In this document: piece after piece, positions 3,171 to 47,106 of the stretch
How positions within the stretch are numbered: the first letter of the stretch is position 1
Layout: every line of letters begins with the position of its first letter
Assembly (NCBI GenBank): GCA_963666015.1
Contig: OY762555.1
Coordinates: forward strand, 3,375,607 to 3,439,606
Length of the DNA stretch: 64,000 bases
Reading direction: 5' to 3'
Origin: an uncultured Sphaerochaeta sp.
GTDB taxonomy: Bacteria; Spirochaetota; Spirochaetia; Sphaerochaetales; Sphaerochaetaceae
Program-made: the position numbers and the translations under genes
The notes under the pieces: model-generated
What the model was told of the DNA's origin: nothing
The model's input: only the letters and a program-made list of their open reading frames with translations
Databases searched by the model: none

Positions 3171-3246
3171 GTCATTCTATCTCAGTAAGATTTAACAACA
3201 TATACAGAAAGAAGAATTTTCTTCTAGCGAGGAATAATAATTGCGC

Positions 3247-5745
3247 TTAGTGACTGCTTCCCCAAAGATCATATATCTTCAGTTGCTTCTTGAAATCTTC
3301 CAGACTGACTTCTTCTCTCGGCTTGAAGGTGACCACTTTCTGTGCAGTAGGACGGATTGCAAACAGATTGTCGCTGAATACACCACTGATGCCCTCAGCT
3401 TCCAGTGCGACCTCGAAAGCAGGATAGGTACAACTTACGGTGACGGAGAATCCTCCTGCTGTTTTTGAAACCTCACGCTTTATCCCAGGATCCTTCAGAT
3501 TGCTTCGCTTCGGTTTTTCCAGCATAAGTTGGTTCTCGATGTACAGATCATCGCTTTTCAGTTTCAGATAGATGAAGGTGTTCTCCCGATCAATCTTGCG
3601 TTTCTTATGGAGGTTGATGGTGCACATATGAGAGCTGCTTCTTGCCTTGCAGTCCATACGGTATTCCATCTTGCTCAGCTTCTTGCCTTCATAGGTACAG
3701 AACTTGACCGAAAGTTTTGCATCCTTGATCTCCTTTGGTCCATCGTTTACCACATAGACCTCTACGATGCCATCTTCCTTCATGTATGCAATCGGGAGTG
3801 AGGGGCTATAGAACCGTTTTGCTGCATAGTGAAGTAGTTTCCAGTTACCGTAGTAGTCGATTGAGGACCAGGAAGCAACTGGCCAGTTGTCATTCAGCTG
3901 CCAGTAGAGTGCTCCCATGCAGTGTGGCATGGTGGTTCTCCAGTATTCAATCGCCATCTTCATTGCTTTTGCCTGCTGTACCTGTGAGAGGTAGAGCATT
4001 TGGGCGAATGAGGAGGGGAAGCGGTAATACCTGGTGAAGTTTTCCATGATGATGGAATTCCCACGTGGATTCTTCTGGTGGTGTTCCATCACCTTGCTGG
4101 TAAGATTCCACATCTCTTCAGTTGCGTAGCTCTTCACCGTATCCAGCAGGGGAAAACTCTGGAAGCCGAACTCACTCACAAAACGCGGGTTGATGGAGTA
4201 GTATTCCTCGAAGCTTTTCCCTTCATGCCAGACTGACCAGAAGTGCATATCGCCCTTGCTGTCATCATGCCAGTTGTCCGAGTAGTCATTCTCTCCAGCA
4301 CTTGGGCTGCTTGGCCACCACTGCCTATGGGGATCAAGTTCCTTTATGACCTTTCCTACCACCCCCTCATTGAGTCGGTCGTAGTCGATGACATAGCGGA
4401 TATGATTCTTTCTGGACTCTTCGTACCAGGAGATGGCACCCAGATCCTCATTGTTCCCACACCAGAGGGCAAGGCTCGGATGATCCTTCAGCCTTGGTAC
4501 TTGGTAACGGAGCTCTGCCTCAACACTGGAGAGGAACTCAGCATTGGTTGGGTACATTGAGCAACTGAACATGCAGTCCTGCCAAACAAGCAGTCCTTTC
4601 TCATCGCAAAGATCATAGAACACCTCTTTTTCGTAGAGGCCACCCCCCCATACGCGGATCATGTTCATGTTGGCTTCAACACAGGATTGCAACAAATACT
4701 CATAACGATCGGGGGTCAACCGACTGGGGAGGGCATCAAGAGGGATCCAGTTGGTGCCTTTTGCAAAGATATCACGCCCATTGACGTTGAATACCATGGG
4801 CTTGCCGCCATCTGGTTCTGCTTCGGTGCGTAAAAGCAAGGTCCTAAAACCGATACGTTTTTCTGTTTGTTGGCTTCCTACGCTCAGTTGCAAAGGATAA
4901 AGCGTTGCCTTTCCTTCTCCGTTGGGCCACCATCGTTTTATCTGTTTACACTGAAGACGGAACTCTAACTTGTTGAGCCCTTGCTGCATGTGCACTGTCC
5001 CTTCTTGCTTTGAGCCAGCCAGCATGAGACGGCAATCAAGGCTCTGTTCCTGTTTTGCGTTGTAGATAACCCGAACTACCGCGTCCCATCGGTCTTTTCC
5101 CATCTCAATGGTATCGCAGGTTATTTCCTCGATGATGCCTTCATCAATGAAAGAGAGTTCAATTGGTTCATAGACCCCCATGGCAAGAATGCAAGGGCCC
5201 CAGTCCCACCCACTGTGACATTGGGTCTTGCGTACCAGGTTGCGATGCTTGGCACTGACAGGATATTCAGAGTAGGGGATCGGATAGGGAAGTGATTCCG
5301 CCAATGCCACGGCTTTCTTCTCAGCACTGGTGAAGGTCAGGGTGAGTATGTTTTCTCCTTCCTTAAGTTTTCCTGCCAGATCAAAACGCCAACGACGGAA
5401 CTGATTGTCCGATTTGCCTACCTCTTCACCGTTCAGGTGGATGGTGATGAAGGTGTCAGCCATCTTTAGGGTGAGTATCGCTCTTCCTTCAGTGAGCATT
5501 GACTCATCCACATCGAACCTCTTGCTCAGTACCCAGTCGTATTTTCCGACCCATTGTATGTCCAGTTCCTGCTGACCGATATAGGGGTCTGCGATCACAT
5601 CTGCTGCCAGAAGGGCTGAGTGAATATCGCCAGGGAGACTGCAAGGTAAATTCTCGTGTTCTAAGAAATATGAGCAATAGGGGGAAATTGCTTTGTTGTC
5701 CAAGGGGCTCAAACGCCAGATTCCATTCAAATTCAGTGTTTGCAT
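3247..5745 (-). CDS. beta-mannosidase (glycoside hydrolase family 2)
   Basis: 832 aa. Motifs I associate with GH2 beta-mannosidases: WWPNGEG, KGTNWIP, NMIRVWGGGLYE, VWQDCMFSC. GGAGG lies 10 nt upstream of the ATG. Confidence 0.8.
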   Translation of the reverse strand: MQTLNLNGIWRLSPLDNKAISPYCSYFLEHENLPCSLPGDIHSALLAADVIADPYIGQQELDIQWVGKYDWVLSKRFDVDESMLTEGRAILTLKMADTFITIHLNGEEVGKSDNQFRRWRFDLAGKLKEGENILTLTFTSAEKKAVALAESLPYPIPYSEYPVSAKHRNLVRKTQCHSGWDWGPCILAMGVYEPIELSFIDEGIIEEITCDTIEMGKDRWDAVVRVIYNAKQEQSLDCRLMLAGSKQEGTVHMQQGLNKLEFRLQCKQIKRWWPNGEGKATLYPLQLSVGSQQTEKRIGFRTLLLRTEAEPDGGKPMVFNVNGRDIFAKGTNWIPLDALPSRLTPDRYEYLLQSCVEANMNMIRVWGGGLYEKEVFYDLCDEKGLLVWQDCMFSCSMYPTNAEFLSSVEAELRYQVPRLKDHPSLALWCGNNEDLGAISWYEESRKNHIRYVIDYDRLNEGVVGKVIKELDPHRQWWPSSPSAGENDYSDNWHDDSKGDMHFWSVWHEGKSFEEYYSINPRFVSEFGFQSFPLLDTVKSYATEEMWNLTSKVMEHHQKNPRGNSIIMENFTRYYRFPSSFAQMLYLSQVQQAKAMKMAIEYWRTTMPHCMGALYWQLNDNWPVASWSSIDYYGNWKLLHYAAKRFYSPSLPIAYMKEDGIVEVYVVNDGPKEIKDAKLSVKFCTYEGKKLSKMEYRMDCKARSSSHMCTINLHKKRKIDRENTFIYLKLKSDDLYIENQLMLEKPKRSNLKDPGIKREVSKTAGGFSVTVSCTYPAFEVALEAEGISGVFSDNLFAIRPTAQKVVTFKPREEVSLEDFKKQLKIYDLWGSSH

Positions 5746-5897
5746 GTAGGGTAAACCTCCAAGGCTGAGTATAGCATAGACGTCTTGTAATAGGGATGGA
5801 ATTGTTGCCTGCTTCTCTTGTGGCTTGTAGATAACACTCCTATACTACAAGAGAAAAACCGAAATTATAATTGTGGGCAAGAACCAAAGGAGTTGGA

Positions 5898-7253
5898 ATG
5901 CTACAGATAAAGGCAAAAGCCAATTTGCAATGGAATCTGAAGGCTTTTATGCTGGCATCTCTCTTGACCATGCTCTTGTTGATCACAACTTATGGGCTCT
6001 ACTCAGGCTGGAAAGAGCAATACATTGAAGAAGGAAAGCATCGTGCCCAGACAGAACTTCTGAACTTGCGCAAGAACATGTTTCTACTTCTTGGCAACCA
6101 GGAGATGTTCACTACCCTCTATGGCTTGCGCCTTGAAGAGAGTTTGCAGGAAGGAATCATCCCTGATCTGGAAGATCTTCGCTCATATCTCACCGTATTG
6201 GAGAAGGATAAGCAATCCTTCAGCTTTGCTTCCCTGGCTATGGATGGCCTGGTCATCGACCAGTATCCTAAGGAGGGAGGCCGTCAGGTAGGCTTTGATC
6301 TGAAATCCCTTCCCATGTATCGCCAACATATTGAACACCTTATGAGACAGGCCTCTGTAAGTATTGACGGTCCCCTCTACCTGGATGATGGGAAACCTTA
6401 TCTGGTGTTTCGTTATCCTCTTCTGGTGGAGAACAAGCAAGCATGGGGACTGTTGAGTCTTTTCTTTGAAATGGAATCATTTCTGCTCGGAGCTGGTTTG
6501 GAAGATCTCTCCCCGCAGTATCGCTATCATTTTTCATTTTCTCACCTTGGAGGGGATGATACCTATACATGGGGAGACCCAAACCTAGGTGATTACGACC
6601 CGGCTTCATTGATCCTCTCATACTCACTCCTGACTTGGAAAATGGAAATTGCTCCTGTAGATTCATGGGACAGCGGTGAAATAGTCTTGGTCCTGTACGC
6701 GATCTTGGGGAGCTTGGTTTCCATTGGTGCAGGAGTATTGAGCTATTTCAGGCAAATCAAGCTACAAACATTCATTAATCGTTCCCATACGGACAGCCTT
6801 ACCGGACTCCTGAACAAACGGGAATTCCTTTTACAGCTACAGAATGAGCTGAAAGGGGGCTGTCCTTTCGCACTTGCATTGCTTGATATCGACAATTTTA
6901 AATTGCTCAATGATACCCATGGTCATATAAATGGAGACAAGGCACTGCTGAGGTTGGTATCAACCATGAAGGAGCGCCTGAGACGTGATGACCTGATAGG
7001 TCGTTTTGGAGGTGATGAATTCATAATTATTCTCAGGGGATGCACTCAGTGTGAGACCTGTTTTCGCATCTATGAATACATTTCTCATGTTTCAGTCCCC
7101 TTGGATGGAGACAATATTGAATTCGCAATCAGCATGGGTGTGGCTTTTTCTCCCAATGATGGCAGTACAAGCGAAGCATTGCTGGAAGTTGCAGACAAGC
7201 GGCTCTACCAAGCCAAGAGAGAGGGGAAGGGAAGAATTCTCTGCACTGACTAA
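5898..7253 (+). CDS. sensor diguanylate cyclase (periplasmic sensor domain, TM, GGDEF)
   Basis: RFGGDEF active site, with an RRDD (RxxD I-site) five residues upstream. N-terminal TM, a roughly 230-aa extracytoplasmic region, then a second TM. Start moved to ATG 5898, which is preceded by AAAGGAG. Confidence 0.85.
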   Translation: MLQIKAKANLQWNLKAFMLASLLTMLLLITTYGLYSGWKEQYIEEGKHRAQTELLNLRKNMFLLLGNQEMFTTLYGLRLEESLQEGIIPDLEDLRSYLTVLEKDKQSFSFASLAMDGLVIDQYPKEGGRQVGFDLKSLPMYRQHIEHLMRQASVSIDGPLYLDDGKPYLVFRYPLLVENKQAWGLLSLFFEMESFLLGAGLEDLSPQYRYHFSFSHLGGDDTYTWGDPNLGDYDPASLILSYSLLTWKMEIAPVDSWDSGEIVLVLYAILGSLVSIGAGVLSYFRQIKLQTFINRSHTDSLTGLLNKREFLLQLQNELKGGCPFALALLDIDNFKLLNDTHGHINGDKALLRLVSTMKERLRRDDLIGRFGGDEFIIILRGCTQCETCFRIYEYISHVSVPLDGDNIEFAISMGVAFSPNDGSTSEALLEVADKRLYQAKREGKGRILCTD

Positions 7254-7284
7254 AAACCGGATCACCATATGCGGTAATCCGGTT
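7251..7284 (-). terminator. putative terminator of pfp
   Basis: On the minus strand: AACCGGAT, a 14-nt loop, ATCCGGTT, then TTTTA. Confidence 0.45.
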
Positions 7285-7305
7285 GAATGAGATACTTTTT
7301 GTAGG

Positions 7306-8964
7306 CTATTTTGCCTGCTCCAAGGCAAGTGTGACCGTTGTCAGGTCGCACACTTCTGCAGGTCCATAGTACTGCACGGCACCTGGGTAGGTGTAGCAGG
7401 TCTCACGAGCCCAGTTGTCACGATGCGCAGCAAAGTACTGGAAGGGCTTTCCATCAAGTTCCACCAGGGCTTTCTTGATAACAGGCTTATCTTCCCCATG
7501 GCGTACCTCCATGTTCATCATCATGGTGATGGGGATACCACCAGCTTCCCACTTCCCAGCAGGTTCTGCGAGGTTGGTGACCGATGAAAGATACCCAGAG
7601 AGACCACTAGCGATCAACATGAATGCATTATAGCCAAGACTGTAGCAGTAATCTGCATCAAAGTTGGTCGGGAACGCACAACGGCCCTCATAGCCAAAGA
7701 AGTGGGTCATGGAACTGAATTTGCCAGTATAGCTACCTTCCTTCTTCATCACTGAGAGCCTCTCTTCAACCATCTGTGCAAGCAATTTGTCAGTCTCAAT
7801 CCTGGAAACTTGAACGTTCCCATGGGGATCGCGGTCCATCAGGAGCTGCTTCTGGATCTCTTCAGGAAGAATGGTAAATACCTGGGCTGCTTCCTTACTG
7901 AGTCGCTCTGCAACAAAGGAGATACGCTCACTGCTGTCAACGATCTTGTTGAATGCCTTCTCTTCCTTGGCAAGGAGATTATTGATCTGGCTAATCAAGA
8001 TCTTGATCTCAGGGATAAATTCGATCAAACCTTCAGGAATAAGTGCAACACCAAAGTTGTTCCCATCTTCTGCGCGTTTTGCAACAACCTTTGCAATGTA
8101 CTCCACAATGCTTACCAGACTCTGTCCCTTGGACTCCACCTCCTCGCTGATCAGGCAGATATTGGGTTGGGTTTCAAGCGCACATTCAAGGGCAATATGA
8201 CTGGCAGAGCGACCCATGAGTTTGATGAAGTGCCAGTATTTTTTTGCACTGTTGGCGTCTCTCTCAATGTTGCCGATCAATTCACTATAAGTTTTGGTAG
8301 CTGTATCAAATCCAAAGGAGATTTCAATGGATTCGTTTTTCAGATCCCCGTCGATTGTCTTGGGACAGCCGATGACCTGAATGCCGTGGTTCTTGGCAAG
8401 GAAGTACTCAGCCAAGACAGCTGCATTGGTGTTTGAATCATCACCACCGATGATGACCAGGGCATCAATCTCATGCTTCTTGCATACTTCAGCGCATACC
8501 TCAAACTGAGCCTCAGTCTCAAGCTTTGTTCTCCCACTTCCGATGATGTCAAAACCGCCGGTGTTGCGGAATGCAGCAAGATATTCCTCGTCAATGATCC
8601 TGTAGGAGTCTTCCAGAATACCGGAAGGGCCACCTTTGAAGCCATAGAGAGTATTCTCCGTATTAGCTGCCTTCAGTGCATCAAAAATTCCACTGATGAC
8701 ATTATGTCCACCAGGAGCCTGTCCTCCGCTCAGTATCACTCCAACGTTTCGCTTCTTGCTGATATCGGTATTATCTCCGGTTATGAACGAAACTCTCGGG
8801 AGTCCGTATGTGTTGGGAAAGAGTGCCTTGATCTGATCTGTGTCAGATTGTGCACTGGTAGCTTCTCCCTTCTTGGGGGTTACCTTGGTGATGCTCTCCC
8901 TCAGAATTGTGGGTAGCTTGGGTTGATAGGCATAACGTACTTTTTGCAAAGGGGAAATGTCCAT
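7306..8964 (-). CDS. pfp: diphosphate--fructose-6-phosphate 1-phosphotransferase (PPi-dependent phosphofructokinase, long type)
   Basis: PFK-family translation ([24 protein letters not shown]). Start placed at the internal ATG 8964 ([11 protein letters not shown]...), preceded by GAGGAG at 6-nt spacing. This removes the overlap with the neighbouring gene. Confidence 0.85.
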
Positions 8965-9087
8965 GCTGAACTCCTCTCTAATTTGGTCTCTGAATTTCTT
9001 AACCATAGAACAAAAAGGCTTCCCGTTTCAAGCATCGTCGCTTGCTCAGGTGCATTTGCTCTGCTATACAGAGAAGGGGAGGATCCA

Positions 9088-11427
9088 ATGTATCAGGAAA
9101 AACCGGTCAACGACCACTGGCTGTTCCGCCACGGCTTCAGCGAAGATTTTCTCGTTAGCGAAATAGACGAATCTGCCTGGCAGCAGGTCTCGCTTCCCCA
9201 TACACCCGTACAATTCGCCCCCGGGTATCATGAGGAGCAGTTTCACTGGGGACCCTACACCTACCGTAGGCATTTCTCCCTTGCCTTGACCGATTCCCAG
9301 CAGGTTTCCATCAGATTTGAAGGGATTGCAAATAAAGCAGACTTCTATGTGGATGGGGTGTTGTCTGGCAGCTGCGAGGGAGCCTATCTTCCCTACACGC
9401 TGGATTTGGGAACTCGCTCTTCTTTTACCCTTACTGTGGTTGCCTCAGGGGATGAGGATCCCTCCTTTCCTCCCTTTGGTGGGAGCATGGACTACATCTC
9501 CTTCTGTGGCATCTATAGGGAAGCAAGCCTCATCATCCGAGAGAATCGTTACTTTACCTTTCTCGGTGTGGAGAGTCACCAGACGGATTCGCTGTCGCTC
9601 AAGGGGAGGGCTGAGGCTTCGGATGGTCTGGATGTAGTGGCAACCCTGCGAGAGGGCAGTACAGTACTTGCGGAGACATCGGCAATTATTGAAATGGGTG
9701 TCTTTTCACTCAAAATGGAAGGACTGACCTTGCATCCATGGACACTGGAAGATCCCTTCCTCTACACCATTGAGGTCAAGCTTGGACAGAGCGACAAAAG
9801 AGTACTCACCTTCGGAAGTAGGAGTGCACGGTTTACCAAGGATGGTTTCTTTCTCAATGGAACTTTAATTCCACTGGTCGGGTTGAATCGTCACCAGGAC
9901 TATCCTTATCTTGGATACGCAGCCCCCCCTTCACTGCAGAGGGAAGATGCAAGCATTTTGAAAAAGCTCGGGGTGAATCTGGTCAGGACAAGCCACTATC
10001 CACAACACCCCGCATTCCTGGATGCTTGTGACCGACTGGGCTTGCTTGTCTTCGAGGAGATTCCAGGATGGCAACATATCGGGAAGGAAAAGCATTGGAG
10101 AGAGCGGTGTGTGCGGAATGTGCAAGGGATGATTGAGCGAGACTACAACCATCCATCCATCATCCTATGGGGAGTGAGGATCAATGAATCCCCTGATGAC
10201 GAGAACCTTTACCAAGAGACCAACCGCGTAGCGAGGACTCTTGACCCCCATCGTGCCACGGCAGGGGTTCGGAACTTGAAGAAGAGCCAATTCCTTGAAG
10301 ATGTGTACACATACAATGATTTCTCGTATGCAGGGAAAGGACGTCCTCTTCAAAAGAAGAGCCGGGTTTGTGAGAAAGCTGTTCCGTACATGGTGAGTGA
10401 GTTTTGCGGCCATATGTATCCCTGCAAATCGTTTGATTCCCCAAAGATGAGGGCAGAACATGCACTGCGCCATGCAAGAGTGCTTGATCAGGGTCTGGCC
10501 ACAGAGGGCCTGAGTGGGGTCATCGGGTGGTGTATGCATGACTACTTCACCCATGCCAATTTCGGAAGTGGGGACCAGATTTGTTACCACGGGGTGATGG
10601 ATATATTCCGCACCGATAAGGCTGCTGCCCACATATATCGTAGCCAAAAGAATAGCCCCTATGTTCTGTCAGTGCTTTCTTCCATGGATGGTGGGGATTA
10701 CCCGGGCGCAATGCTCCCCTCCGCAGTGATTGCCACCAATTGTGAAGAGGTCAGGTTGCGCTACAATGACCGTGTGGTAGGGGTCTTCCAACCTGAGAGA
10801 AAGATGTTTCCTCATCTTTCCCATCCACCGGTTATCATCGACGATTTCATCGGAGATCGACTACAGGCAGAACCTTACTTGAGAGAGCGGGAGAGACCAT
10901 CCCTTGCCCGTCTGCTTGGAAAAGTGGGGAGACAGGGAGGATCACTGAAAACCGGTGATCTGCTCAAGATGGGGCTATTCCTGAAAAAGCATCAACTTCG
11001 TTACCAGGATGCTGTCGATTTATTCACCAGGTATGTTGGTAATTGGGGAAGTGAGGGAGGCCTCTGGGTCTTTGAGGGATTGGTAGGAGGGAAAGTAGTA
11101 GTAACTGAGACATGCAGCCAAGGGGGCAAGCCTTCCCTCCATCTTATTGCTGACCGTTCCAATCTCAGCACAAAGGAAGCAACTTACGATATGGTCTCCG
11201 TACGCGTGGAGGTGCGGAAGGAAGGGGGGCATTTACCTTTGCCCTATGCGCATATCCCCCTCTTGGTCTCTGTCTCTGGAGTATTATCCTTGGCAACTCC
11301 TCCACAGATGAGCACCATCGGAGGTAGTGCTGTAATCTATCTACGTACCATGGGGGGGGTGGGAGAGTCTGTATTGCATGTCTCCTCTCCCGTGGGTGAC
11401 AAAACCCTCCAGTTTACGGTAGTCTAG
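9088..11427 (+). CDS. glycoside hydrolase family 2 protein (beta-galactosidase/glucuronidase-like)
   Basis: NLVRTSHYPQHP, NHPSIILWGVRINE (acid/base Glu) and SEFCGH motifs. Start at ATG 9088, preceded by GGGGAGGA. The listed 8923 start would overlap pfp. Confidence 0.75.
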   Translation: MYQEKPVNDHWLFRHGFSEDFLVSEIDESAWQQVSLPHTPVQFAPGYHEEQFHWGPYTYRRHFSLALTDSQQVSIRFEGIANKADFYVDGVLSGSCEGAYLPYTLDLGTRSSFTLTVVASGDEDPSFPPFGGSMDYISFCGIYREASLIIRENRYFTFLGVESHQTDSLSLKGRAEASDGLDVVATLREGSTVLAETSAIIEMGVFSLKMEGLTLHPWTLEDPFLYTIEVKLGQSDKRVLTFGSRSARFTKDGFFLNGTLIPLVGLNRHQDYPYLGYAAPPSLQREDASILKKLGVNLVRTSHYPQHPAFLDACDRLGLLVFEEIPGWQHIGKEKHWRERCVRNVQGMIERDYNHPSIILWGVRINESPDDENLYQETNRVARTLDPHRATAGVRNLKKSQFLEDVYTYNDFSYAGKGRPLQKKSRVCEKAVPYMVSEFCGHMYPCKSFDSPKMRAEHALRHARVLDQGLATEGLSGVIGWCMHDYFTHANFGSGDQICYHGVMDIFRTDKAAAHIYRSQKNSPYVLSVLSSMDGGDYPGAMLPSAVIATNCEEVRLRYNDRVVGVFQPERKMFPHLSHPPVIIDDFIGDRLQAEPYLRERERPSLARLLGKVGRQGGSLKTGDLLKMGLFLKKHQLRYQDAVDLFTRYVGNWGSEGGLWVFEGLVGGKVVVTETCSQGGKPSLHLIADRSNLSTKEATYDMVSVRVEVRKEGGHLPLPYAHIPLLVSVSGVLSLATPPQMSTIGGSAVIYLRTMGGVGESVLHVSSPVGDKTLQFTVV

Positions 11428-40514: not shown

Positions 40515-41641
40515 TGCTCCGTGTCCTTTACTAGGTAGCCGTCGTTTGCACTCCAGCTTACATAGACCGTATCCTTCCACTGGATCTCAGGACCTTCTTC
40601 CAAGAATACTGTATGTTGCTTGAATACTTTCACCAGTGTGTCAGGTTCCTTTTCCAATTTGACAAAGAATTTCGATTGGAATCCTGAATAGATGGGTTCT
40701 TCCACTATTCCCTTGAAGGTGTTCATGGTTGTACTGTTGCTTCGTGGAGGATTGGGCGAAATCCTGATTTTCTCTGGACGGACGGTAAAGTCGAGCAAAG
40801 AGCCAACTTCCTGGGCTTCGGAATCAGTCACATACACTTCACCTTGCAGCTGAGGTACCTCAACGCGTAGGAGGTATTCTTCTCCTTGTGGTTCACAGGA
40901 GCGTACAGTACAGGGGAATATATTGGACTCCCCGATGAAGCTGGCAACAAATCTGGTTGCTGGAGCTTCATAGATTTCATAAGGCGTCCCTATCTGCAGT
41001 ACCTTGCCCTTATTCATGACTGCAATACGATCGGAAACTGAAAGAGCTTCACTCTGGTCATGAGTTACATAAATAAATGTTATGCCGACTTTGTCATGGA
41101 TGAGGTCGAGTTCCACCAACAGGTTCTGTCTCAGTTTTGCATCGAGGGCAGAGAGTGGTTCATCAAGCAGGAGTACCGCTGGTTCATTGATCAGGGCACG
41201 TGCAATGGCTACTCGTTGTTTTTGCCCTCCACTGAGCATGGAAGGTTTCTTGTAAATATGTTCTTCCAGTTGTACTAGTTTTACATATTCCATGACTTTC
41301 TGTTCCACGGTTGCCTTATCGGTACGACGAAGTCGCAACGGGAAAGCGATATTCTCGTAGACTGTGAGATGAGGGAACAATGCATAGGTCTGGAAGACGG
41401 TATTTGCCTGACGTTTCTCAGGGGGGAGGGGGAGGATGTCCTTGTTGTCGAAGGCAACGCTTCCCGAGTCCGGATAATCGAATCCAGCGATAATCCTCAG
41501 CAGTGTGGTCTTGCCACAACCAGAAGGACCCAACAGCGAGAAGAATTCTCCCCTCTTGATTTGTACGCTTACATCATCAAGAGCCTTGAAATCACCATAG
41601 GAACGGGATACCCGTTGAGCAGTTACTTCAACACCTTTCAA
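40511..41641 (-). CDS. potA: polyamine ABC transporter ATP-binding protein
   Basis: Walker A GPSGCGKTT, signature LSGGQKQRVAIARAL, Walker B LLLDEPLSALD, and a C-terminal TOBE-like domain. TTG start. Confidence 0.85.
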   Translation of the reverse strand: MKGVEVTAQRVSRSYGDFKALDDVSVQIKRGEFFSLLGPSGCGKTTLLRIIAGFDYPDSGSVAFDNKDILPLPPEKRQANTVFQTYALFPHLTVYENIAFPLRLRRTDKATVEQKVMEYVKLVQLEEHIYKKPSMLSGGQKQRVAIARALINEPAVLLLDEPLSALDAKLRQNLLVELDLIHDKVGITFIYVTHDQSEALSVSDRIAVMNKGKVLQIGTPYEIYEAPATRFVASFIGESNIFPCTVRSCEPQGEEYLLRVEVPQLQGEVYVTDSEAQEVGSLLDFTVRPEKIRISPNPPRSNSTTMNTFKGIVEEPIYSGFQSKFFVKLEKEPDTLVKVFKQHTVFLEEGPEIQWKDTVYVSWSANDGYLVKDTEQ

Positions 41642-41719
41642 TCTTTTCCATTTCCTCCACTCGTTTCAGGCATAGAATTTCCAAAAGAGGTGTTTTGGAG
41701 CCTTCACGATGGTAATGCG

Positions 41720-41748
41720 AATATCGAATATTTACCCCCCACTGTCAA
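41720..41748 (-). promoter_or_regulatory. candidate promoter of potABC
   Basis: On the minus strand: TTGACA (41748-41743), 17 nt, GATATT (41725-41720). Confidence 0.4.
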
Positions 41749-41809
41749 GCATTCATCCGATAAAATTTCAATGAATTTGTATATTCATACCTTAAAGGAA
41801 AGAGAGTTC

Positions 41810-42001
41810 TTAACGCTGGAAATCTATTCGTACAACCTCACCGGTTCTGGGGTCTTTTCTGTATACTGCTGGGCCTTCCTCGTCATAGCCATACCAGATG
41901 AGCCGAGAGAAACGTAGAAGGTCCTGTTCCTTCGGTGGATCGAAGACTCTGCAATAATCAAAGCGAAATGTGGTTTGTACGCGCAAATCATAGCCCAGCA
42001 T
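41810..42001 (-). CDS. small hypothetical protein (63 aa)
   Basis: AGGAGGAG lies 5 nt upstream of the ATG. No family recognised. Confidence 0.4.
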   Translation of the reverse strand: MLGYDLRVQTTFRFDYCRVFDPPKEQDLLRFSRLIWYGYDEEGPAVYRKDPRTGEVVRIDFQR

Positions 42002-42169
42002 ACAACTCCTCCTAAGGCCTCAATCACCGTCCTATGATTGAGGCGATTGTGTCATAAGCGTAGATGAGCATTGGTGACTCGTCAAGGGTATTGGAGCAAC
42101 AGAGAGGATATTCGTGTTTGGTAGTGTCTCTTCTATGATTGTTTTGCTTGCAGGTGTGGCTTAGGCAGG

Positions 42170-42205
42170 AAAAAAAATACAGTACCGACCAAAAATGATC
42201 GGCAC
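42170..42205 (-). terminator. orphaned terminator downstream of the displaced tRNA-Arg 3' half
   Basis: On the minus strand: GTGCCGA, a 10-nt loop, TCGGTAC, tgta, then TTTTTTTT. It starts 11 nt after the orphan tRNA 3' segment. Confidence 0.4.
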
Positions 42206-42215
42206 CAAAACTCTA

Positions 42216-42260
42216 TTACGCCAAAGAGGTCTCGAACCTCTGACCTACTGCTTAGAAGGC
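42216..42260. repeat. att-type direct repeat (distal copy): orphan 3' 45 nt of tRNA-Arg
   Basis: TTACGCCAAAGAGGTCTCGAACCTCTGACCTACTGCTTAGAAGGC is identical to 45505-45549. Confidence 0.9.
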
Positions 42261-42272
42261 CCAAAATTAGGT

Positions 42273-42298
42273 TTATCAACTGTTATCAGAGATTATCA
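42273..42298 (+). promoter_or_regulatory. three helically phased TTATCA repeats next to the distal att repeat
   Basis: TTATCA at 42273, 42283 and 42293, exactly 10 bp apart. A further TTATCA/CTATCA pair lies at 42347 and 42357. Confidence 0.35.
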
Positions 42299-42368
42299 TA
42301 AGATATTAATAAATAAAGAAATACATGCATTATAAAGCAAGTAGTTTTATCAGGAACTATCAGTGTTT

Positions 42369-42407
42369 CTACATCAATATTAGAGAGTATTAGGAAATTT
42401 GATGTAG
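42369..42407. promoter_or_regulatory. inverted pair of the 9-mer TTGATGTAG (candidate arm-type or operator site)
   Basis: CTACATCAA (42369-42377), 21 nt, TTGATGTAG (42399-42407). The same 9-mer recurs at the integrase end of the islet. Confidence 0.4.
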
Positions 42408-42586
42408 AATTGGTGTAGGCATATAGAAAAGGTATTCTGATTTGGAAAGTTGTATTTTTAAAATTAGAGAGATGAAATCTTTCAATATTTATGTATAGCT
42501 ATTATTATAGTCTAATGGGCTTCATTGTTGTAAAAACAATAAGAGATAACTGAATTGCTTTCTAGAATATTAAAGGAGATTTGAAA

Positions 42587-43282
42587 ATGGCAGAGTATAA
42601 ACCAGAGCTAGGCCAAAGCGGAAAGGATTGGGTAATCTCTTTAACTAGAGGTGGGCTTGGTGCTATTCCAGTTGTAGGTTCGATAATTGGAGAAATTGTT
42701 TGCAATTTGATTCCAAATCAAAGAATTGATAGGTTAGAAAAATATCTCAATTATCTAGAACAGAGTTTGTCTAGTGCTATTGAAAGATTTGATTCTTTTA
42801 GAAGGAATATTTCTAGTCCACAAGGTATAGAACTTTTTGAGGACTGTTTACTCTTAGCTGGTCGTGCTTCAACTGATATTAGAAAACAACGATTAGCAAG
42901 GCTAACCTTTTCAGGTTTGTCTTGTGATACATTTAATTACAGTGAAACCAAGAAAATGGTGAATTTGTATTCAGAACTTACAGATGAAGAATTAATAACG
43001 CTCGTTTATTATAGAGAAACTATATATCTAGAATCAGCTAGTAATCCAAGCGATTATCATAATCTCATGAGAAAAAAGTATCCAGAGATACTAGAACCAA
43101 TTTCAGCTTCGTTAGGACAAGATGAGGAAGTATATAGGCGAAAAGCATTACAAGATAGTTTTAGGGATACCTTAATACAAAAAGGTTTAGCAAAAAATGA
43201 TCGTAGTTTTTCAATTACACGACTAGGCAAGATTCTAGCTGAGTATATTTTTTTAGATGGCGAAGAAACTCATGATGAATGA
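42587..43282 (+). CDS. islet cargo protein A, hypothetical (about 231 aa)
   Basis: AAAGGAG lies 8 nt upstream of ATG 42587; the listed ORF starts at TTG 42581. It has an N-terminal small-residue hydrophobic segment GGLGAIPVVGSIIGEIVCNLIP, and the rest looks helical. No family recognised. Confidence 0.6.
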   Translation: MAEYKPELGQSGKDWVISLTRGGLGAIPVVGSIIGEIVCNLIPNQRIDRLEKYLNYLEQSLSSAIERFDSFRRNISSPQGIELFEDCLLLAGRASTDIRKQRLARLTFSGLSCDTFNYSETKKMVNLYSELTDEELITLVYYRETIYLESASNPSDYHNLMRKKYPEILEPISASLGQDEEVYRRKALQDSFRDTLIQKGLAKNDRSFSITRLGKILAEYIFLDGEETHDE

Positions 43283-43348
43283 AAATAGTGTTTGGGTCGG
43301 GAGCTGTGAATCCTAGGTCAATATTTGATCTAGGTGTGAAATTTCAAA

Positions 43349-43960
43349 TTAATTGAACTCAGATTCAATATCTTCATTGAAACTGTTTAAGTAGTTGAGA
43401 TAATCAAAGTTATTAAAAAAGGACTTGATCATATCATAAAGTATCAGATACTCATCGTAAAAAATCTTTATATTTATATGCATTAACTGATTATCAAGAT
43501 GATTATGACCCTTAATGTCGGTTCTGTATCTAAAAGTCTCACCATTATCATCTATGTCAATAATTTTTCGTATCGAATTGGGTATCTCTTTTTGGAATTT
43601 CTCTAGGTCAAGACGGATTTCTGGAATGGAACGAGAGTGGTCTTTTAACATATTGAATAGATTTATTAGGTTATGGCCTTTGAAGATAGCTTTTTTAACT
43701 AATTTCGTATCATCAAGACGAACAACTTCTCTTAAAGAAATTTTCAGTGCTATTTCAAGAGAATGCCGAGCATTGAAAACTATTGGATAAATTAGTGTGT
43801 CCGCAAGGGACCTGTCATCCGAAAGTACGGCTAAGCACAACCGCTTAGTAGCTTCTGAATACCCTTCAAAATAATTATAGTCTGATACTCTTCCGTTTGT
43901 ACCAACACAAGCGTTAAACGGCCAAAAACTTATATCACCCAAATCAATCAAATCTTTCAT
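43349..43960 (-). CDS. islet cargo protein B, hypothetical (203 aa)
   Basis: GAGGAG lies 9 nt upstream of the ATG. AT-rich codon usage. Contains R146-x5-H152 (RTDIKGH) and KGHNLINLF. No family confidently recognised. Confidence 0.6.
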   Translation of the reverse strand: MKDLIDLGDISFWPFNACVGTNGRVSDYNYFEGYSEATKRLCLAVLSDDRSLADTLIYPIVFNARHSLEIALKISLREVVRLDDTKLVKKAIFKGHNLINLFNMLKDHSRSIPEIRLDLEKFQKEIPNSIRKIIDIDDNGETFRYRTDIKGHNHLDNQLMHINIKIFYDEYLILYDMIKSFFNNFDYLNYLNSFNEDIESEFN

Positions 43961-44093
43961 ATTTCTAAACTCCTCGTAGATTATGAACTGAAAGAACCAT
44001 CAAAGTATATTACAGATATGGAACCTCTGGTTTATCTATTGCTCCATATCTGGCCGTTTAGGCTTTTTCAGGACTCTTTGGAGTCCTCCTAAT

Positions 44094-44124
44094 AAAGACA
44101 AAACCTTGGCTCAATAACCAAGGC
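44094..44124 (-). terminator. possible terminator downstream of the integrase
   Basis: On the minus strand: GCCTTGG-ttattga-GCCAAGG followed by TTTTGTCTTT. Confidence 0.35.
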
Positions 44125-44236
44125 TCTGAAAGAAAAATCTCTGAATACTTCTCTTCTGTTGTTATGTATATTTTGAGTGAGCTTGCTTACCAAAATCACC
44201 GAGTGTAGTGGAAACTTTGGCTCTTAACTATGATTG

Positions 44237-45387
44237 TCAGAAAAGCCCATCAAATGCATCCTCGTGTTCAAGGACTCTGCTATAACTATCCTTCAAAGAA
44301 GGGTGGTTATATCTCTCTGTCATGCTCTCTGAACTATGACCAGTTGTCTCCTGTAGAATCTCCAAGGGAAGAACATTCCTCAAAAGGGTATTGTAGGTAT
44401 GTCGAAAACTATGAATTACCAAATTCCTACCTTCACTCTTTATTTTTGCTTCCTCCAAGGCTTTCTGGAATCTGTTCTGCAGCGTCTTTCCCATGATTGG
44501 CCTGCTGCCATTCCTACCATAGAAAATCAAATCCTCTGGATCATTGAAAGGCGTACTCGCTTTCCAATATTCCAGAATCTCCTCTGCTCTCTGGCTCAAT
44601 ACCACAACTCTGCTTTTTCCTGTCTTGGTGCTCCCAGTGGAATCATCGTTCTTGATGGATTCTTCAATCAATAAACCATTTCGCTTCTTGTCCTCGATGA
44701 CATGTTTCCATTTCAAAGCTCTGGCTTCACCTCTTCTCATCCCTGTTGTTGCCAGGATAAAAAAGAAATATGCATACTCTTCTTCCCTCCAAATCTTCGT
44801 CAGCGCTTCGAGGTCGCTCGGGAACAGCTTCTTCAGCTCTGCTTGGGAAAATACATCTCTAGTCTTTGGCTGAACCGCTAGAGACTCAACAATGGAAAGA
44901 CAGTTGTAGGGAATAATACCTTCTCGCTCCGCTTCTCTGAGAACAGTTCGAAAGGCATAGAGAATATGATTCTTCGTCTGATTGGAAAGTTGCTCTCCAG
45001 TGATACCAGCCAGTTCTCAATCTCCACCCGATTCAATGAGGACAATGAACGCTTCCCAAACTGGGGTAGAATGTAATTAACAAGGTGGTCTCTTCGCAAC
45101 TTTGAATTGGTCTTGGAAAATCTCTTTCCTTTTGCCAGCTGACGTTTGATATACAAACATTCATCCCATACAAAGAACGTCTTCGTATAATCATTCAATG
45201 CACGGTCATTGGTGTCGTTCTGTACAAGAAACTTTTCTACCACAGCAACGGCTTCATGCTTCAGTGATTTGCCTGTGGATTTAGGTTTCCTCGTCCCATC
45301 CTCATCATAGTAGTAGAAGAACCAAACAACGCCTTTCTTGTTCTTGGCATCCTTGTAGCGCTTGAAAAGAGTGTATTCATGTCTCAT
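44237..45387 (-). pseudogene. tyrosine-type site-specific integrase, interrupted by a single frameshift
   Basis: Two ORFs (44878-45387 N-terminal; 44237-44740 catalytic, with RRGEARAL, HSFRHTYNTLL, GHSSESMTERYNH). My hand translation of the catalytic-domain frame stays open upstream to about 44985 (NQTKNHILYAFRTVLREAEREGII...), so one indel near 44983-44990 splits the gene. Confidence 0.8.
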
Positions 45388-45398
45388 GGTCTCTAGTT

Positions 45399-45419
45399 TT
45401 GATGTAGATTTTGATGTAA
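45399..45419. promoter_or_regulatory. direct pair of TTGATGTA(G/A) just upstream of the integrase start
   Basis: TTGATGTAG (45399-45407) and TTGATGTAA (45411-45419), 12-32 nt upstream of the integrase ATG on the minus strand. Confidence 0.4.
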
Positions 45420-45504
45420 GTCAAGGGTAGTTGAGTTGGTGTTAAAAAGAAAAGATACCAGCTATTTAGCCAGTATCTTCTTTCTTTATAGTAGTTTATT
45501 TCTT

Positions 45505-45579
<75 letters not shown>

Positions 45580-45787
45580 ATCGCTTACAGGTCTTACGTC
45601 CCTGAAACGAGCAAACAGTAACGCAAAAATAAAAAAAGGTAAAGATGGTTAGAAAAAATTGTTTAATGCATGAAATATAATCGTGTTCCATTATATTTTG
45701 GCTTGCCTAATGGGGGAAATCTATGTATACTTACTAATACCTAGTTAAAAACTAGGAAATAAACATACGATACATAGGAGGTATTTC

Positions 45788-46408
45788 ATGTTTAAGCAAG
45801 TTGAACTTTCCTACGGTTTTGATGCGTTGGAACCGCATATCGATGAATTAACCATGGTCACCCACTACACGAAACACCATGCCGGATATACAAAGAACCT
45901 TAATGCTGCGGTAGAGAAGGATCCAAGCCTGAAAGATCGCTCCATTGAAGACATACTCAAGAACCTCGATTCTATCTCCGACGAGAAGCTTAGAACCGCT
46001 GTGAGAAATAATGGGGGAGGGTATGCTAACCATAATCTCTATTTCTCAATACTCAGTCCATCTGCCGCTCATACGCCTAAAGGCTCGTTACTCGATAGAA
46101 TCAAGAAAGATTTTGGAAGCCTTGATGCTTTGAAAGAAACACTAAACAGCCAGGCAGCAGGAAGATTTGGTTCAGGCTGGGCGTTCCTTGTTGCACATTC
46201 TGACGGATCCCTGGAAGTAAAGAATACCCCGAACCAGGATACACCCTTGATGGACAAGAAGGGTGGGGTGCCCATTCTTGGCATTGATGTTTGGGAGCAT
46301 GCATACTACTTGAAATACAAGAACCTTAGGGCAGAATACCTGAACGCAATTTGGAATGTCCTTGATTGGGCAAAGGTAGAAGAAGACTACCTGAAACTCC
46401 TTTCATAG
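45788..46408 (+). CDS. Fe/Mn-family superoxide dismutase
   Basis: LEPHIDELTMVTHYTKHH, plus GIDVWEHAYYLKYKN metal-ligand motifs. AGGAGG RBS. Confidence 0.9.
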   Translation: MFKQVELSYGFDALEPHIDELTMVTHYTKHHAGYTKNLNAAVEKDPSLKDRSIEDILKNLDSISDEKLRTAVRNNGGGYANHNLYFSILSPSAAHTPKGSLLDRIKKDFGSLDALKETLNSQAAGRFGSGWAFLVAHSDGSLEVKNTPNQDTPLMDKKGGVPILGIDVWEHAYYLKYKNLRAEYLNAIWNVLDWAKVEEDYLKLLS

Positions 46409-46426
46409 ACGTATTGTACTCTCCAT

Positions 46427-46456
46427 GGCCCCCCTGAAATAGGGGGGCCGCTTTGT
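46427..46456 (+). terminator. terminator after the SOD gene
   Basis: GGCCCCCC-tgaaata-GGGGGGCC followed by GCTTTGTG, a weak T tract. Confidence 0.55.
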
Positions 46457-46602
46457 GATGGGCTCCGTCACCAGAAAGGTTCAGAGATATACAAAAGCAA
46501 AAATATGAATAATAGATAACGGTAAGATACAAATAGAGAGCGGAACAATACAAAAATATTAGTCTATCAGTACTTGATTATCGAATAGTAATTCAGTAAA
46601 AT

Positions 46603-47052
46603 ATGGCCATGATACAGAACGAGGACAAGGAGACCTATATGGATAACCACGATATACAGAAAAGACAAAGCATCGAGTACATGATCAAGAACTCTGACAT
46701 GTTCCTGGACGCAGACTATGAACGTCTCGCTTCACACATTGAGGGACACCGCTACTTTCTTGGAAAGAACCTTTCCATGCCAATTACCTGGGATGAGGCA
46801 ACCTACTCCTGGATGAGTAATATCTACCAGCCAATCAGCCAGGTCATGGAAAACTGGGCAACCCAGCTGAGTTTTCCTGGAAGAAGGAAAGCAGACCTCT
46901 TTTTCGAGATTTGTGACCATCAGTATTTCCTGAGCCTGAAACAGCAGAAGGAAGTCGATGTGTACAATGCTGCACTTGACTACGACATACAGTTTGGCAA
47001 GACCATCGGAAGGATCATTGCAAGGATTCTCTCTTCCAACAATGCGGCATAA
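46603..47052 (+). CDS. hypothetical protein, possibly DUF4032 family
   Basis: The HRYFLGKNLSMPITWDEATYSWMSNIYQP block resembles the DUF4032 core as I recall it. 149 aa. Confidence 0.45.
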   Translation: MAMIQNEDKETYMDNHDIQKRQSIEYMIKNSDMFLDADYERLASHIEGHRYFLGKNLSMPITWDEATYSWMSNIYQPISQVMENWATQLSFPGRRKADLFFEICDHQYFLSLKQQKEVDVYNAALDYDIQFGKTIGRIIARILSSNNAA

Positions 47053-47074
47053 AAGCCAGAAGCAAAATACATAG

Positions 47075-47106
47075 GGCATGCGGTCTAATGGCTGTATGCC
47101 TTTTTT
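47075..47106 (+). terminator. putative terminator
   Basis: GGCATgC...GtATGCC imperfect hairpin followed by TTTTTTAT. Confidence 0.45.

Follow-up and report, generated by a model that had tools for sequence, protein, structure and literature searches.

Two convergent, AT-rich genes, hereafter A and B, lie side by side on a small islet inserted at a tRNA gene of an uncultured Sphaerochaeta sp. An earlier note on this DNA described them as orphan genes and as a candidate defence or abortive-infection module, possibly an effector/sensor pair. The question raised by the locus is whether A and B are indeed one system or two unrelated passengers, and what each of them may do. The islet, its relatives in other genomes and the two protein families were analysed starting from the window, i.e. 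the whole stretch of 64,000 nucleotides in which the islet is contained.

Anatomy and base composition of the islet

The islet, whose features are collected in Table 1, is 3.3 kb long and consists of a frameshifted tyrosine integrase and of the intact genes A and B. Repeats of the tRNA 3' end at its borders, and an integrase adjoining the tRNA, identify it as a tRNA-integrated islet with a tyrosine recombinase; related islets in two other loci, L006 and L059, are bracketed by this att sequence too. The C-terminal ORF of the integrase matches Pfam Phage_integrase (3e-22). By tblastn, the L006 integrase aligns with that of the window in two frames, at 62-66% identity, while identity to the L059 integrase is 84%. 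Since its integrase carries one frameshift, the islet is probably no longer mobile by itself. The stem-loop found between integrase and gene B suggests that the latter is transcribed from its own promoter.

Table 1. Location of the islet features within the window
Feature	Position	Strand	Remarks
attL, distal direct repeat	42212-42260		49 nt; copy of the tRNA-Arg 3' part, 98% identical to 45501-45549
Cluster of 10-mer TTGATGTAGA-type motifs	42368-42419		42368-42377 (-), 42399-42408 (+), 42410-42419 (+, TTGGTGTAGG)
Cassette with gene A	42420-43334	+	915 bp; missing from sister strain
Gene A	42587-43282	+	231 aa; ATG at 42587; ORF and ribosome-binding site
Intergenic hairpin	43312-43334		CCTAGGTCA-ATATT-TGATCTAGG
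Gene B	43349-43960	-	203 aa; ORF; stand-alone form of an uncharacterised all-helical domain
Terminator-like stem-loop and T tract, between integrase and gene B	44099-44128	-	Pattern scan: 13 pairs and T-rich tail
Tyrosine integrase pseudogene	44237-45387	-	One frameshift within 44989-45010
Third exact TTGATGTAGA copy	45399-45408	+	Adjoins integrase start
attR	45501-45549		Within tRNA-Arg(TCT)
tRNA-Arg(TCT), integration target	45505-45580	-	ARAGORN; Rfam tRNA, 69.8 bits; direct repeat

GC and GC3 are 0.339 and 0.194 in gene A and 0.327 and 0.314 in gene B, against 0.46-0.48 and about 0.48 in the flanks, confirming the foreign base composition previously proposed for the two genes. Both starts are preceded, at 8-10 nt, by ribosome-binding sites of the AGGAG/GGAG type, and the description of a convergent AT-rich pair with good translation signals, carried by a tRNA-integrated islet, was found to be accurate. 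It also holds that the two genes are the only cargo: Rfam reveals just the tRNA within the islet, tandem repeats are absent, and no repeated or structured RNA was found of the kind featured by type III toxin-antitoxin systems, retrons or other RNA-containing defences.

The exact TTGATGTAGA 10-mer occurs three times in 64 kb, against 0.14 copies expected, and all three are at the ends of the islet. A tandem arrangement of such motifs also adjoins the distal att of L059, and the copy next to the integrase start is kept in the sister strain contig L061. We consider these motifs as candidate arm-type sites of the integrase.

A removable cassette and a variable slot

The two genes are separated by a 66-bp spacer, and the hairpin reported within it is real: as plus strand RNA it forms 10 pairs, with fold z values of -1.8 (plus strand) and -2.5 (minus strand). 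Comparison with a sister strain, represented by contigs L061 and L062 (core DNA 89% identical), defines a discrete cassette, since in both contigs position 42419 is joined straight to 43335. The empty site consists of TTGGTGTAGG followed immediately by TGTAAAAC, while the filled site of the window reads TTGGTGTAGG...TTGATCTAGG, an imperfect 10-bp direct repeat with 8 matches out of 10. The left copy is the last motif of the distal cluster, the right one (43325-43334) is the 3' arm of the hairpin. A role of the latter as bidirectional terminator was not retained, in view of the lack of a U tract on either strand and of the coincidence of its 3' arm with the boundary repeat: the hairpin may equally well serve for recombination or binding, or act as a weak terminator that travels with the cassette.

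The same sister contigs lack, in addition to exactly the A cassette, the segment 44225-45395 containing the integrase, and retain tRNA-Arg, attL and a B pseudogene, indicating that B is dispensable there. Related islets show further combinations. The L006 islet is reduced to integrase and B between two att sites, for a total of 2.2 kb. L002 contains tRNA-Pro, tRNA-Arg, a 78-aa integrase remnant and an intact B. In L059, integrase and B are followed by a convergent Ser/Thr kinase gene, located in the slot which in the window is held by A, and TTGATGTAGA motifs are found at the ends. In all three loci the integrase is immediately followed by B, which thus accompanies this integrase family constantly. 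The nearest B homologues suggest Sphaerochaetaceae as the family of the organism. The slot beyond B may be empty, or contain either A or the kinase; in a degenerate islet copy of L006 it hosts a DUF2806 gene.

Besides the window, 10 loci with A and 113 with B were searched with HMMs, and none of them holds the partner. The conserved co-occurrence or adjacency typical of two-gene defence systems is thus missing, and the effector/sensor pair, which the earlier note had itself staked on co-occurrence of the homologues, has to be abandoned: both genes are found together in 0 of 123 other loci, and A is missing from the sister strain, where B persists as a pseudogene. Because the slot holds the A cassette separately from B, the two genes are best seen as independent single-gene accessory modules, neighbours by chance. 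The explanation that we favour, and regard as probable, is accordingly that of a decaying tRNA-Arg(TCT) islet with an integrase and B as its core and with a variable slot, A being a distantly Abi-alpha-like module of its own. Minimal islets of this type would be built on a tyrosine integrase and gene B, with room for variable cargo between the latter and the distal att site; in the window genome this slot holds the cassette carrying gene A.

Gene A, a probable remote relative of Abi-alpha

In the A protein, whose AF2 model has a pLDDT of 75, an N-terminal Gly/Pro-rich hydrophobic segment and the invariant IPNQR motif precede a helical body. The suspicion of a membrane-active-looking N-terminus finds support in the hydrophobic segment, which spans residues 24-42 with a Kyte-Doolittle mean of 1.92; this IPNQR-containing N-terminal region, rather than a DNA-binding helix, is also the most conserved part of the protein. 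The window protein gave no significant match in Pfam, PADLOC, NCBIfam or PHROGs. Neither gene, however, deserves the label of orphan: A, with more than 2,100 clusters, and B, with more than 800 proteins, are both members of large families without annotation. A profile search with a threshold of E <= 1e-3 yielded 2,140 clusters of A relatives at 50% identity, mostly from Proteobacteria and Spirochaetes, not Firmicutes.

A homologues recur as stand-alone genes on prophages and mobile islands, as in the window islet. In L001 the gene is part of a prophage lysogeny module, beside Dcm and a GHKL ATPase; in L055 it lies in a defence island, between two TIR genes and DUF4365; in L012 it is found on an inovirus-like contig and in L013 next to what, judged from its sequence alone, is probably a transposase. 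A scan of genome contigs for A returned 2 loci only and missed the genome of the window itself. The only apparent phage match proved to be an Acinetobacter chromosomal contig.

The one family recurrently matched by A relatives is Abi_alpha (Pfam PF14337, formerly DUF4393), to which Abi-alpha, the EF2833 protein of Enterococcus faecalis V583 prophage 6, belongs. Abi-alpha is a single-gene, prophage-borne abortive-infection protein causing premature lysis, and EF2833 is the only member of this Pfam family with a known phenotype (PMC6356687). PF14337 is matched by 14 of 66 A-family members, with a best E of 1.4e-6, and by none of 51 B-family proteins. In one A-family protein (P0246), residues 116-299 align collinearly to positions 2-194 of the 196-position model. 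Scores stay below the Pfam gathering threshold of 29 bits, ranging where shown from 13.6 to 25.4 bits in the relatives, and the window protein has no match at E <= 1; the positive control, phiNM1 ABF73047, scored 153.6 bits. Another phiNM1 protein, ABF73033, initially taken as the DUF4393 one in place of ABF73047, is unrelated to A.

By hhalign, the A family is collinear with our own Abi_alpha alignment over 147 columns, at a probability of only 1.4% (P = 0.036); probabilities were also low for profiles A4 or A1 against Abi_alpha. A local HMM, built on 11 Abi_alpha sequences, separated the A family marginally (top score 12.6 bits, against at most 8.8 for reversed or shuffled controls) and gave -1.3 for the window protein. 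Foldseek searches of PDB with the A model produced no match with E < 0.3, and the sequences of PDB, searched with profiles A1, A2, A3, A4 and A5, returned chance-level matches only (Cry7Ca, designed proteins, sliding clamp, sodium channel, MukB, ferritin); PDB 3H35, said in the literature to resemble Abi-alpha, was not among them. On the basis of the recurrent, though sub-threshold, Pfam matches, A appears to be a remote relative of Abi-alpha.

By analogy with Abi-alpha, A may bring about abortive infection by itself. Its membrane-directed or effector end could be the hydrophobic Gly/Pro-rich segment ending in IPNQR, and the helical body might keep the protein inactive until infection, when the cell would lyse, or stop growing, too early for the phage.

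Gene B, a conserved helical domain often near defence genes

The B family comprises 835 relatives, mostly proteins of about 430 aa with the B domain at the N-terminus; this longer form is present in Acinetobacter baumannii, Pseudomonas aeruginosa and Vibrio vulnificus. In an alignment of 51 sequences, the residues N16-A-C-V-G-x-N-G23, D54, R65, E69, K73, H96, D137, R144 and H154 are invariant, and at least 90% of the sequences also have H66, which adjoins R65. This constellation of Asn, Cys, Asp, Arg, His, Glu and Lys looks like a catalytic or ligand site.

As far as could be judged from the searches performed, B matches no described family. The window protein gave no significant match in Pfam, PADLOC, NCBIfam or PHROGs, and its AF2 model (pLDDT 78, pTM 0.78) found nothing with E < 0.3 when compared by Foldseek with PDB and BFVD. 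The nuclease-type motif suggested previously was not substantiated, as no nuclease family emerged from any of these resources or from PDB sequences. PDC-S23 was considered and rejected because a single relative out of 51 matches it (P0083, residues 139-265, E 5.6e-6), and the window protein has no PADLOC match. Searches by tblastn of GenBank phages, with B and with P0083 as a long form, found nothing, and no link of B to any experimentally tested protein was found.

B homologues lie near putAbiC, VapBC and AbiJ_NTD4, near AbiH and PLDc_2 (PLD-like), and near DpnII restriction-modification genes; viral or prophage contigs account for twenty of the B-family loci. The majority of B-domain proteins are not beside an integrase: in Acinetobacter baumannii the gene stands alone between metH and transketolase, and another site is a cassette-like array adjoining putAbiC and VapBC. 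Given the recurrence of Abi, toxin-antitoxin and restriction-modification genes and of prophage ends among its neighbours, a stand-alone anti-phage or exclusion function would be the most likely role of B.

Alternative explanations

A model in which the two genes work only as a pair, with A as effector acting on membranes and B as nuclease or sensor, would account for their adjacency and convergence, for the AT-richness of both and for their being the only intact cargo; each gene, moreover, has defence-type relatives or neighbours. We give this hypothesis hardly any probability, in view of the lack of co-occurrence in 123 other loci, of the clean cassette junction in the sister strain, which keeps B but not A, and of the related islets containing B alone or B and a kinase. 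Furthermore, the convergent orientation excludes co-transcription, and GC3 differs between A (0.19) and B (0.31). It is also very unlikely that, on an islet reduced to a decaying remnant, neither gene is currently functional in the host. The frameshifted integrase of the window would fit, as would the sister strain, with its integrase deleted and B reduced to a pseudogene, but the A and B ORFs of the window are full length in comparison to their homologues, keep all family-invariant residues and are provided with good ribosome-binding sites.

Other explanations reassign the role of a single gene. B could serve the mobile element, either as an integrase accessory for directionality or regulation, or as an addiction-type gene stabilising the islet, A being then the only defence cargo. 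This is rather unlikely: B does follow the integrase directly, and in the same orientation, in four islets (window, L002, L006 and L059), and is the sole cargo in L006, but most B-domain proteins are encoded away from integrases, such as at the A. baumannii metH/transketolase site and in the putAbiC/VapBC array, B is intact in L002, where the integrase is a 78-aa remnant, and a terminator-like site separates the two genes. To our knowledge, in addition, a 200-aa protein with an enzyme-like set of invariant polar residues is unlike known excisionases. A, in turn, might be a winged-helix transcription regulator encoded by phages or islands and devoid of abortive-infection activity. MarR, PrfA and MotA-type proteins are indeed the weak Foldseek/HMM neighbours of its helical body, and the L001 homologue adjoins the cI-like repressor region of the prophage; against this, which makes such a role quite improbable, these matches are non-significant (E > 0.4, TM <= 0.56, small targets), conservation peaks in the hydrophobic IPNQR segment, Abi_alpha is the sole recurrent family match and other homologues sit in the TIR/DUF4365 island. 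Finally, the islet family might be a minimal cassette-capture platform, with an integrase, a constant B and, next to the presumed TTGATGTAGA arm sites, a slot gaining or losing single defence genes such as A, the L059 kinase or the L006 DUF2806 gene; the boundaries of the A cassette, being degenerate copies of that 10-mer, would then suggest a recombinase-mediated exchange, somewhat integron-like, and B would represent a new, widespread family of single-domain anti-phage enzymes; taken as a whole, we hold this to be unlikely.

Significance of the locus

Within the favoured explanation of two independent modules on a decaying islet, the defence or abortive-infection idea survives for each gene taken singly, for A by virtue of its probable relation to Abi-alpha and of its genomic contexts, for B by virtue of its neighbours, and not as a two-gene module. 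A defence role for each gene alone is thus plausible. The data establish the anatomy of the islet, the size of both families, their failure to co-occur, the cassette indel and the remote similarity of A to Abi-alpha, while the defence activity and mechanism of both proteins are what we infer. More generally, two genes are not a system merely because they adjoin on a very small island, and the comparative data describe two separable units. Through A, a large unannotated family (over 2,000 clusters at the 50% identity level) would be tied to the lysis-type single-gene defences of the Abi-alpha/DUF2806 group, stretching this group far past Firmicutes prophages; P43, R46 and R49, in the IPNQR..R motif, and E36 are conserved residues suited to mutation. 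B is a conserved domain without a Pfam family, present in important pathogens and repeatedly found beside genes for Abi, toxin-antitoxin and restriction-modification systems. Its inclusion in defence screens seems reasonable, the short form, of about 200 aa, being handy to test. The variable slot, with its 10-mer boundaries, is a compact and manageable model for studying the gain and loss of single cargo genes by islands.

Comparison with known systems

B shares with HEPN Abi/toxin proteins a compact all-helical bundle, conserved Arg and His residues and an association with defence islands. Resemblance at the structural level is weak and non-significant (PDB 2q00, E 2.3, prob 0.41, TM 0.54; a BFVD HEPN protein, E 1.2, prob 0.47), and Pfam HEPN is matched by one of 51 relatives, at E 0.02. 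The catalytic Rx4-6H motif of HEPN proteins, placed at the start of the last core helix, is not conserved in the 51-sequence alignment, the invariant Arg and His of B being R65, with H66 adjacent, and R144 with H154, at a spacing of 9. As far as we know, the N-terminal NACVGxNG loop, invariant in B, is not a HEPN feature.

Like Abi-alpha, A is a stand-alone single gene, encoding about 230-285 aa and found on prophages and islands, and in both the N-terminus is Gly/Pro-rich and partly hydrophobic. The A motifs '..A.RA.S..R..IAS..', 'LL.LL.EL.D.E.IWL', 'L.RLGL' and C-terminal '.IT.LGK.L' occur in this order, collinear with their Abi_alpha counterparts 'ALEASKFYI..IR.MFA.LIASSMD', 'FVEIIKQLSPLDA..L', 'NL.RLGL' and 'T.FGK.F'. 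In contrast, the invariant IPNQR of the A family is without counterpart in our Abi_alpha alignment, the family stays throughout below the Pfam gathering score, and its members come chiefly from Proteobacteria and Spirochaetes rather than Firmicutes. Belisama, a DUF2806 protein of the Vibrio cholerae superintegron, is a validated, toxic, single-gene defence of the lysis type, reported to be homologous to Abi-alpha (bioRxiv 10.1101/2024.07.02.601686). A DUF2806 (PF10987) gene occupies, as described above, the cargo position of the degenerate L006 islet copy; A-family members match Abi_alpha, not DUF2806, and hhalign aligned the A family to the L006 DUF2806 protein over the last 27 columns only.

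With small tRNA-integrated islets carrying tyrosine integrases, finally, the present islet shares the duplication of the tRNA 3' end as attL and attR, the integrase beside the tRNA and the AT-rich cargo. It differs from them in that this type is of unusually small size, with 2.2 kb in L006 and 3.3 kb in the window, and combines one constant cargo gene with a single variable slot, bounded by 10-mers resembling the presumed arm sites.

Islet anatomy

The anatomy described by the earlier note is confirmed: genes A and B converge on a 66-bp spacer containing a hairpin, each is preceded by an AGGAG/GGAG-type ribosome-binding site 8-10 nt 5' of its start codon, and the GC content of both lies below that of the islet flanks, as expected for foreign DNA. 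The islet itself is real, being delimited by direct repeats at a tRNA-Arg(TCT) gene and carrying an identifiable tyrosine integrase, whose coding sequence a single frameshift divides into two ORFs. The folding energy of the spacer hairpin is modestly better than that of shuffled sequences (z -1.8 on the + and -2.5 on the - strand), and a U tract is absent. Terminator-like stem-loops with T tracts were seen at two other places, and the one following the integrase ORF suggests a separate promoter for B. RNA families other than tRNA and tandem repeats were searched for in the islet, and none was found.

Features of the islet (window) and of related loci in other genomes
Locus	Feature	Position	Strand	Details
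Window	Gene A (ATG to stop)	42587-43282	+	ORF, 231 aa; GC 0.339, GC3 0.194
Window	Gene B	43349-43960	-	ORF, 203 aa; GC 0.327, GC3 0.314
Window	Islet flanks			GC 0.46-0.48, GC3 about 0.48
Window	Spacer hairpin	43312-43334		CCTAGGTCA-ATATT-TGATCTAGG
Window	tRNA-Arg(TCT)	45505-45580	-	integration-site tRNA gene
Window	49-nt direct repeat	42212-42260, 45501-45549		islet att copies
Window	Integrase frameshift	within 44989-45010
Window	Stem-loop with T tract	44099-44128	-	after integrase ORF
Window	Stem-loop with T tract	45450-45481	-	after tRNA-Arg gene
Window	TTGATGTAGA, exact copies	42368-42377 (-), 42399-42408 (+), 45399-45408 (+)
L006	Islet att copies	4566-4609, 6761-6804		enclose integrase and B only; 2.2 kb
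L006	Second islet copy, degenerate	2939-4609		adjoins the integrase and B islet; end segment, integrase C-terminal remnants, partial att
L006	DUF2806 (PF10987) gene	3107-4078	-	cargo position of degenerate copy
L002	tRNA-Pro, tRNA-Arg(TCT)			integrase remnant of 78 aa, intact B
L059	Islet between att copies			integrase, B, convergent Ser/Thr protein kinase gene in A's position
L059	Kinase gene	4767-5906	-	GC 0.28
L001	Prophage lysogeny end	145-6476		integrase, Dcm-type methylase, 626-aa GHKL (HATPase_c_3) protein, A homologue, convergent 264-aa Cys-rich protein, cI-like repressor
L055	Deltaproteobacterial MAG	5687-10181		TIR protein, unknown gene, TIR (ThsB-like) protein, A homologue, unknown gene, DUF4365 protein

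Independence of A and B

The two genes had been proposed to form an effector/sensor pair. Both family HMMs were run against six-frame translations of 10 other A loci (L001, L008-L013, L034, L054, L055) and 113 other B loci (L002-L007, L014-L033, L035-L041, L061-L140), and not one locus had homologues of both, an outcome that the earlier note had named as refuting the proposal; the unequal GC3 of A and B (0.19 and 0.31) is a further sign against pairing. The pair reading is thus refuted. We regard each gene as a module of its own, independent of the other, and the defence-like reading is kept for each of them separately.

Comparison with a close relative, represented by two metagenome contigs about 89% identical in DNA over the left flank and the neighbouring superoxide dismutase gene (L061 1-3013 and L062 1-4827, against window 41414-47106), gives the plainest evidence against a pair. 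The same tRNA-Arg islet is found there, but exactly 42420-43334, containing A and its flanks, and 44225-45395, an almost exact deletion of the integrase ORF, are missing. The junction empty of A reads TTGGTGTAGG|TGTAAAAC, while the window features TTGGTGTAGG (42410-42419), 915 bp, TTGATCTAGG (43325-43334) and then TGTGAAAT; A thus occupies a discrete cassette with an imperfect (8/10) 10-bp direct repeat at its borders; the copy on the right is the 3' arm of the spacer hairpin. B is present in these contigs as a pseudogene, interrupted by stop codons in L061 and by a frameshift in L062, so that, with integrase and A absent too, the islet is eroding differently among close relatives.

Three exact copies of the 10-mer TTGATGTAGA are present in the 64-kb window, where 0.14 would be expected, and each lies within 110-190 bp of an islet end. 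Degenerate copies at 42410-42419 and 43325-43334 coincide with the boundaries of the A cassette, which starts immediately 3' of a tandem pair of the motif. The motif, including the tandem pair 11 bp apart, recurs at equivalent places in the related islet L059 and in the sister strain (L061). Judging from this placement, the TTGATGTAGA sites are probably arm-type sites of the integrase. Cassette-like gain or loss of A at repeats resembling such presumed sites is the least expected feature of the islet.

A family of islets with a variable slot

The window integrase shares 84% identity with its counterpart in L059, the closest related islet, and 62-66% with the one in L006. From the contents of the L006, L002 and L059 islets, B is the cargo that stays constant, and what fills the slot beyond it varies. 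A DUF4062 gene lies just outside the L059 islet, and a Prim-Pol/VapE primase gene upstream of the degenerate islet copy in L006.

Gene families

Neither A nor B had a significant match when scanned directly against Pfam, PADLOC, NCBIfam and PHROGs, and a word-indexed protein search retrieved only 9 relatives for A and 14 for B. The label "orphan", given to both genes, does not survive profile searches, which gathered 2,140 clusters for A (representatives at 50% identity) with E <= 1e-3, of which 540 reach E <= 1e-30; almost all of these A relatives stand alone and are about 230-250 aa long. For B they gathered 835 proteins, most of about 380-460 aa with the B domain N-terminal. Pseudomonas, Acinetobacter and Vibrio are among the sources of the B relatives, all of which are named "hypothetical". 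For both genes, the GC content of homologues is consistently below that of the surrounding DNA.

Gene B

B belongs to an undescribed domain family, no Pfam family covering its domain. The AF2 model (pLDDT 78, pTM 0.78) is an all-helical bundle, and a 51-sequence alignment features the invariant residues N16-A-C-V-G-x-N-G23, Y30, G33, D54, P59, R65, E69, K73, H96, D137, G140, F143-R144-Y145, H154-L155 and I162, along with a nearly invariant H66, a pattern suggesting a site for catalysis or ligand binding. DUF5764 is weakly matched by 6 of the 51 members, over the C-terminal half of the long forms. Hints of HEPN are each non-significant (Pfam HEPN E 0.02 in one relative, PDB 2q00 with prob 0.41, a BFVD HEPN protein with prob 0.47), and, unlike in HEPN proteins, no conserved Rx4-6H motif was found in the alignment. 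The PADLOC candidate PDC-S23 was rejected as the family of B, being matched by a single member, P0083, at 5.6e-6.

A phiNM1 protein unrelated to A or B, ABF73033 (L042 1402-2334, - strand; 310 aa, between excisionase and repressor), contains the R-N-x-x-x-H motif (AYSMRNIINH) typical of HEPN RNases.

It is genomic context that links B to defence. Homologues lie between putAbiC and VapBC, with AbiJ_NTD4 close by, near AbiH and a PLD-like gene, near a DpnII restriction-modification system and a phage-type DNA polymerase A, on 20 viral or prophage contigs and within a Pseudomonas region bearing phage tail genes. The long form P0083 (430 aa) is a lone insert between the metH and transketolase genes of Acinetobacter baumannii (L035-L039 8001-9293); its gene, unannotated, is indexed in 748 collection blocks, and its cluster has 443 contigs in the homology search. 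By these contexts B is a candidate mobile accessory or defence gene. The main rival reading, that B serves the islet itself rather than defence, stems from the strict linkage of B to this islet's integrase family, immediately downstream of which it is found in four islets. We put a defence-related role for B at or somewhat under an even chance; the short form would then be an enzyme-like helical domain working alone, and in the long forms a C-terminal domain, perhaps sensory or regulatory, would be coupled to it.

Gene A and its probable relation to Abi-alpha

The nearest A homologue (63% identity, L001) is flanked by a Dcm methylase and GHKL ATPase pair and by a prophage cI-like region, in what may be a multi-gene defence hotspot; the Cys-rich protein next to it has no Pfam match. 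The L055 region looks like a defence island, and other homologues lie on an inovirus-like contig and next to a probable transposase. These contexts agree with the probable link to Abi_alpha described below. One record named "Acinetobacter phage MD-2021a" (CAKLQH020000009.1, L034), where the A homologue follows acnA, is evidently a bacterial chromosomal contig and not a phage, since it also carries tyrB, prpBC and fabB.

Conservation is best in the N-terminal 50 residues (D14, G25, P28, G31, E36 and an invariant I-P-N-Q-R..R). The sole strongly hydrophobic stretch of A is residues 24-42 (Kyte-Doolittle 19-mer mean 1.92); in relatives keeping the motif it typically falls just before IPNQR (median offset -18 residues), and the family median for the most hydrophobic 19-mer is 1.57. 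In the AF2 model (pLDDT 75) residues 1-45 are disordered and the remainder is helical with a small C-terminal hairpin; Foldseek returned no significant structural neighbour.

A Pfam scan of 66 A-family members found Abi_alpha (PF14337) in 14 (best E 1.4e-6), any other family being matched by at most one member, and the same test found no Abi_alpha match among 51 B-family proteins. A relatives match PF14337 collinearly and over almost its entire length (P0246 116-299 to model 2-194 of 196, P0147 86-228 to 34-192, P0139 45-193 to 5-149). All of the matches fall under the Pfam gathering score, and the window A protein has no direct match. An Abi_alpha alignment was built here from phage proteins; phiNM1 ABF73047 matches PF14337 at 8.8e-45. 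Aligned by hhalign, the A family and Abi_alpha are collinear over 147 columns with matching motif order, at a low support of P = 0.036, and a small local Abi_alpha HMM separated the A family only marginally from controls. On these alignments A is a probable, not a proven, member of a sister family of Abi_alpha and, with the same reserve, a new, divergent branch of the known Abi-alpha/DUF2806 group.

Abi-alpha (EF2833) is a single-gene, prophage-borne abortive-infection protein causing premature lysis (PMC6356687); in phiNM1 lysogens it exceeds every other prophage protein in abundance (bioRxiv 10.1101/2025.10.23.684294). "Belisama", a related DUF2806 protein, is toxic and has been validated by experiment as a lysis-type defence (bioRxiv 10.1101/2024.07.02.601686). 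By analogy, the chances that A is an Abi-type defence gene are about even. If so, its hydrophobic N-terminal IPNQR segment would act on or at the membrane, held silent by the helical body until a phage cue, and the outcome would be premature lysis or growth arrest, as with Abi-alpha and Belisama.
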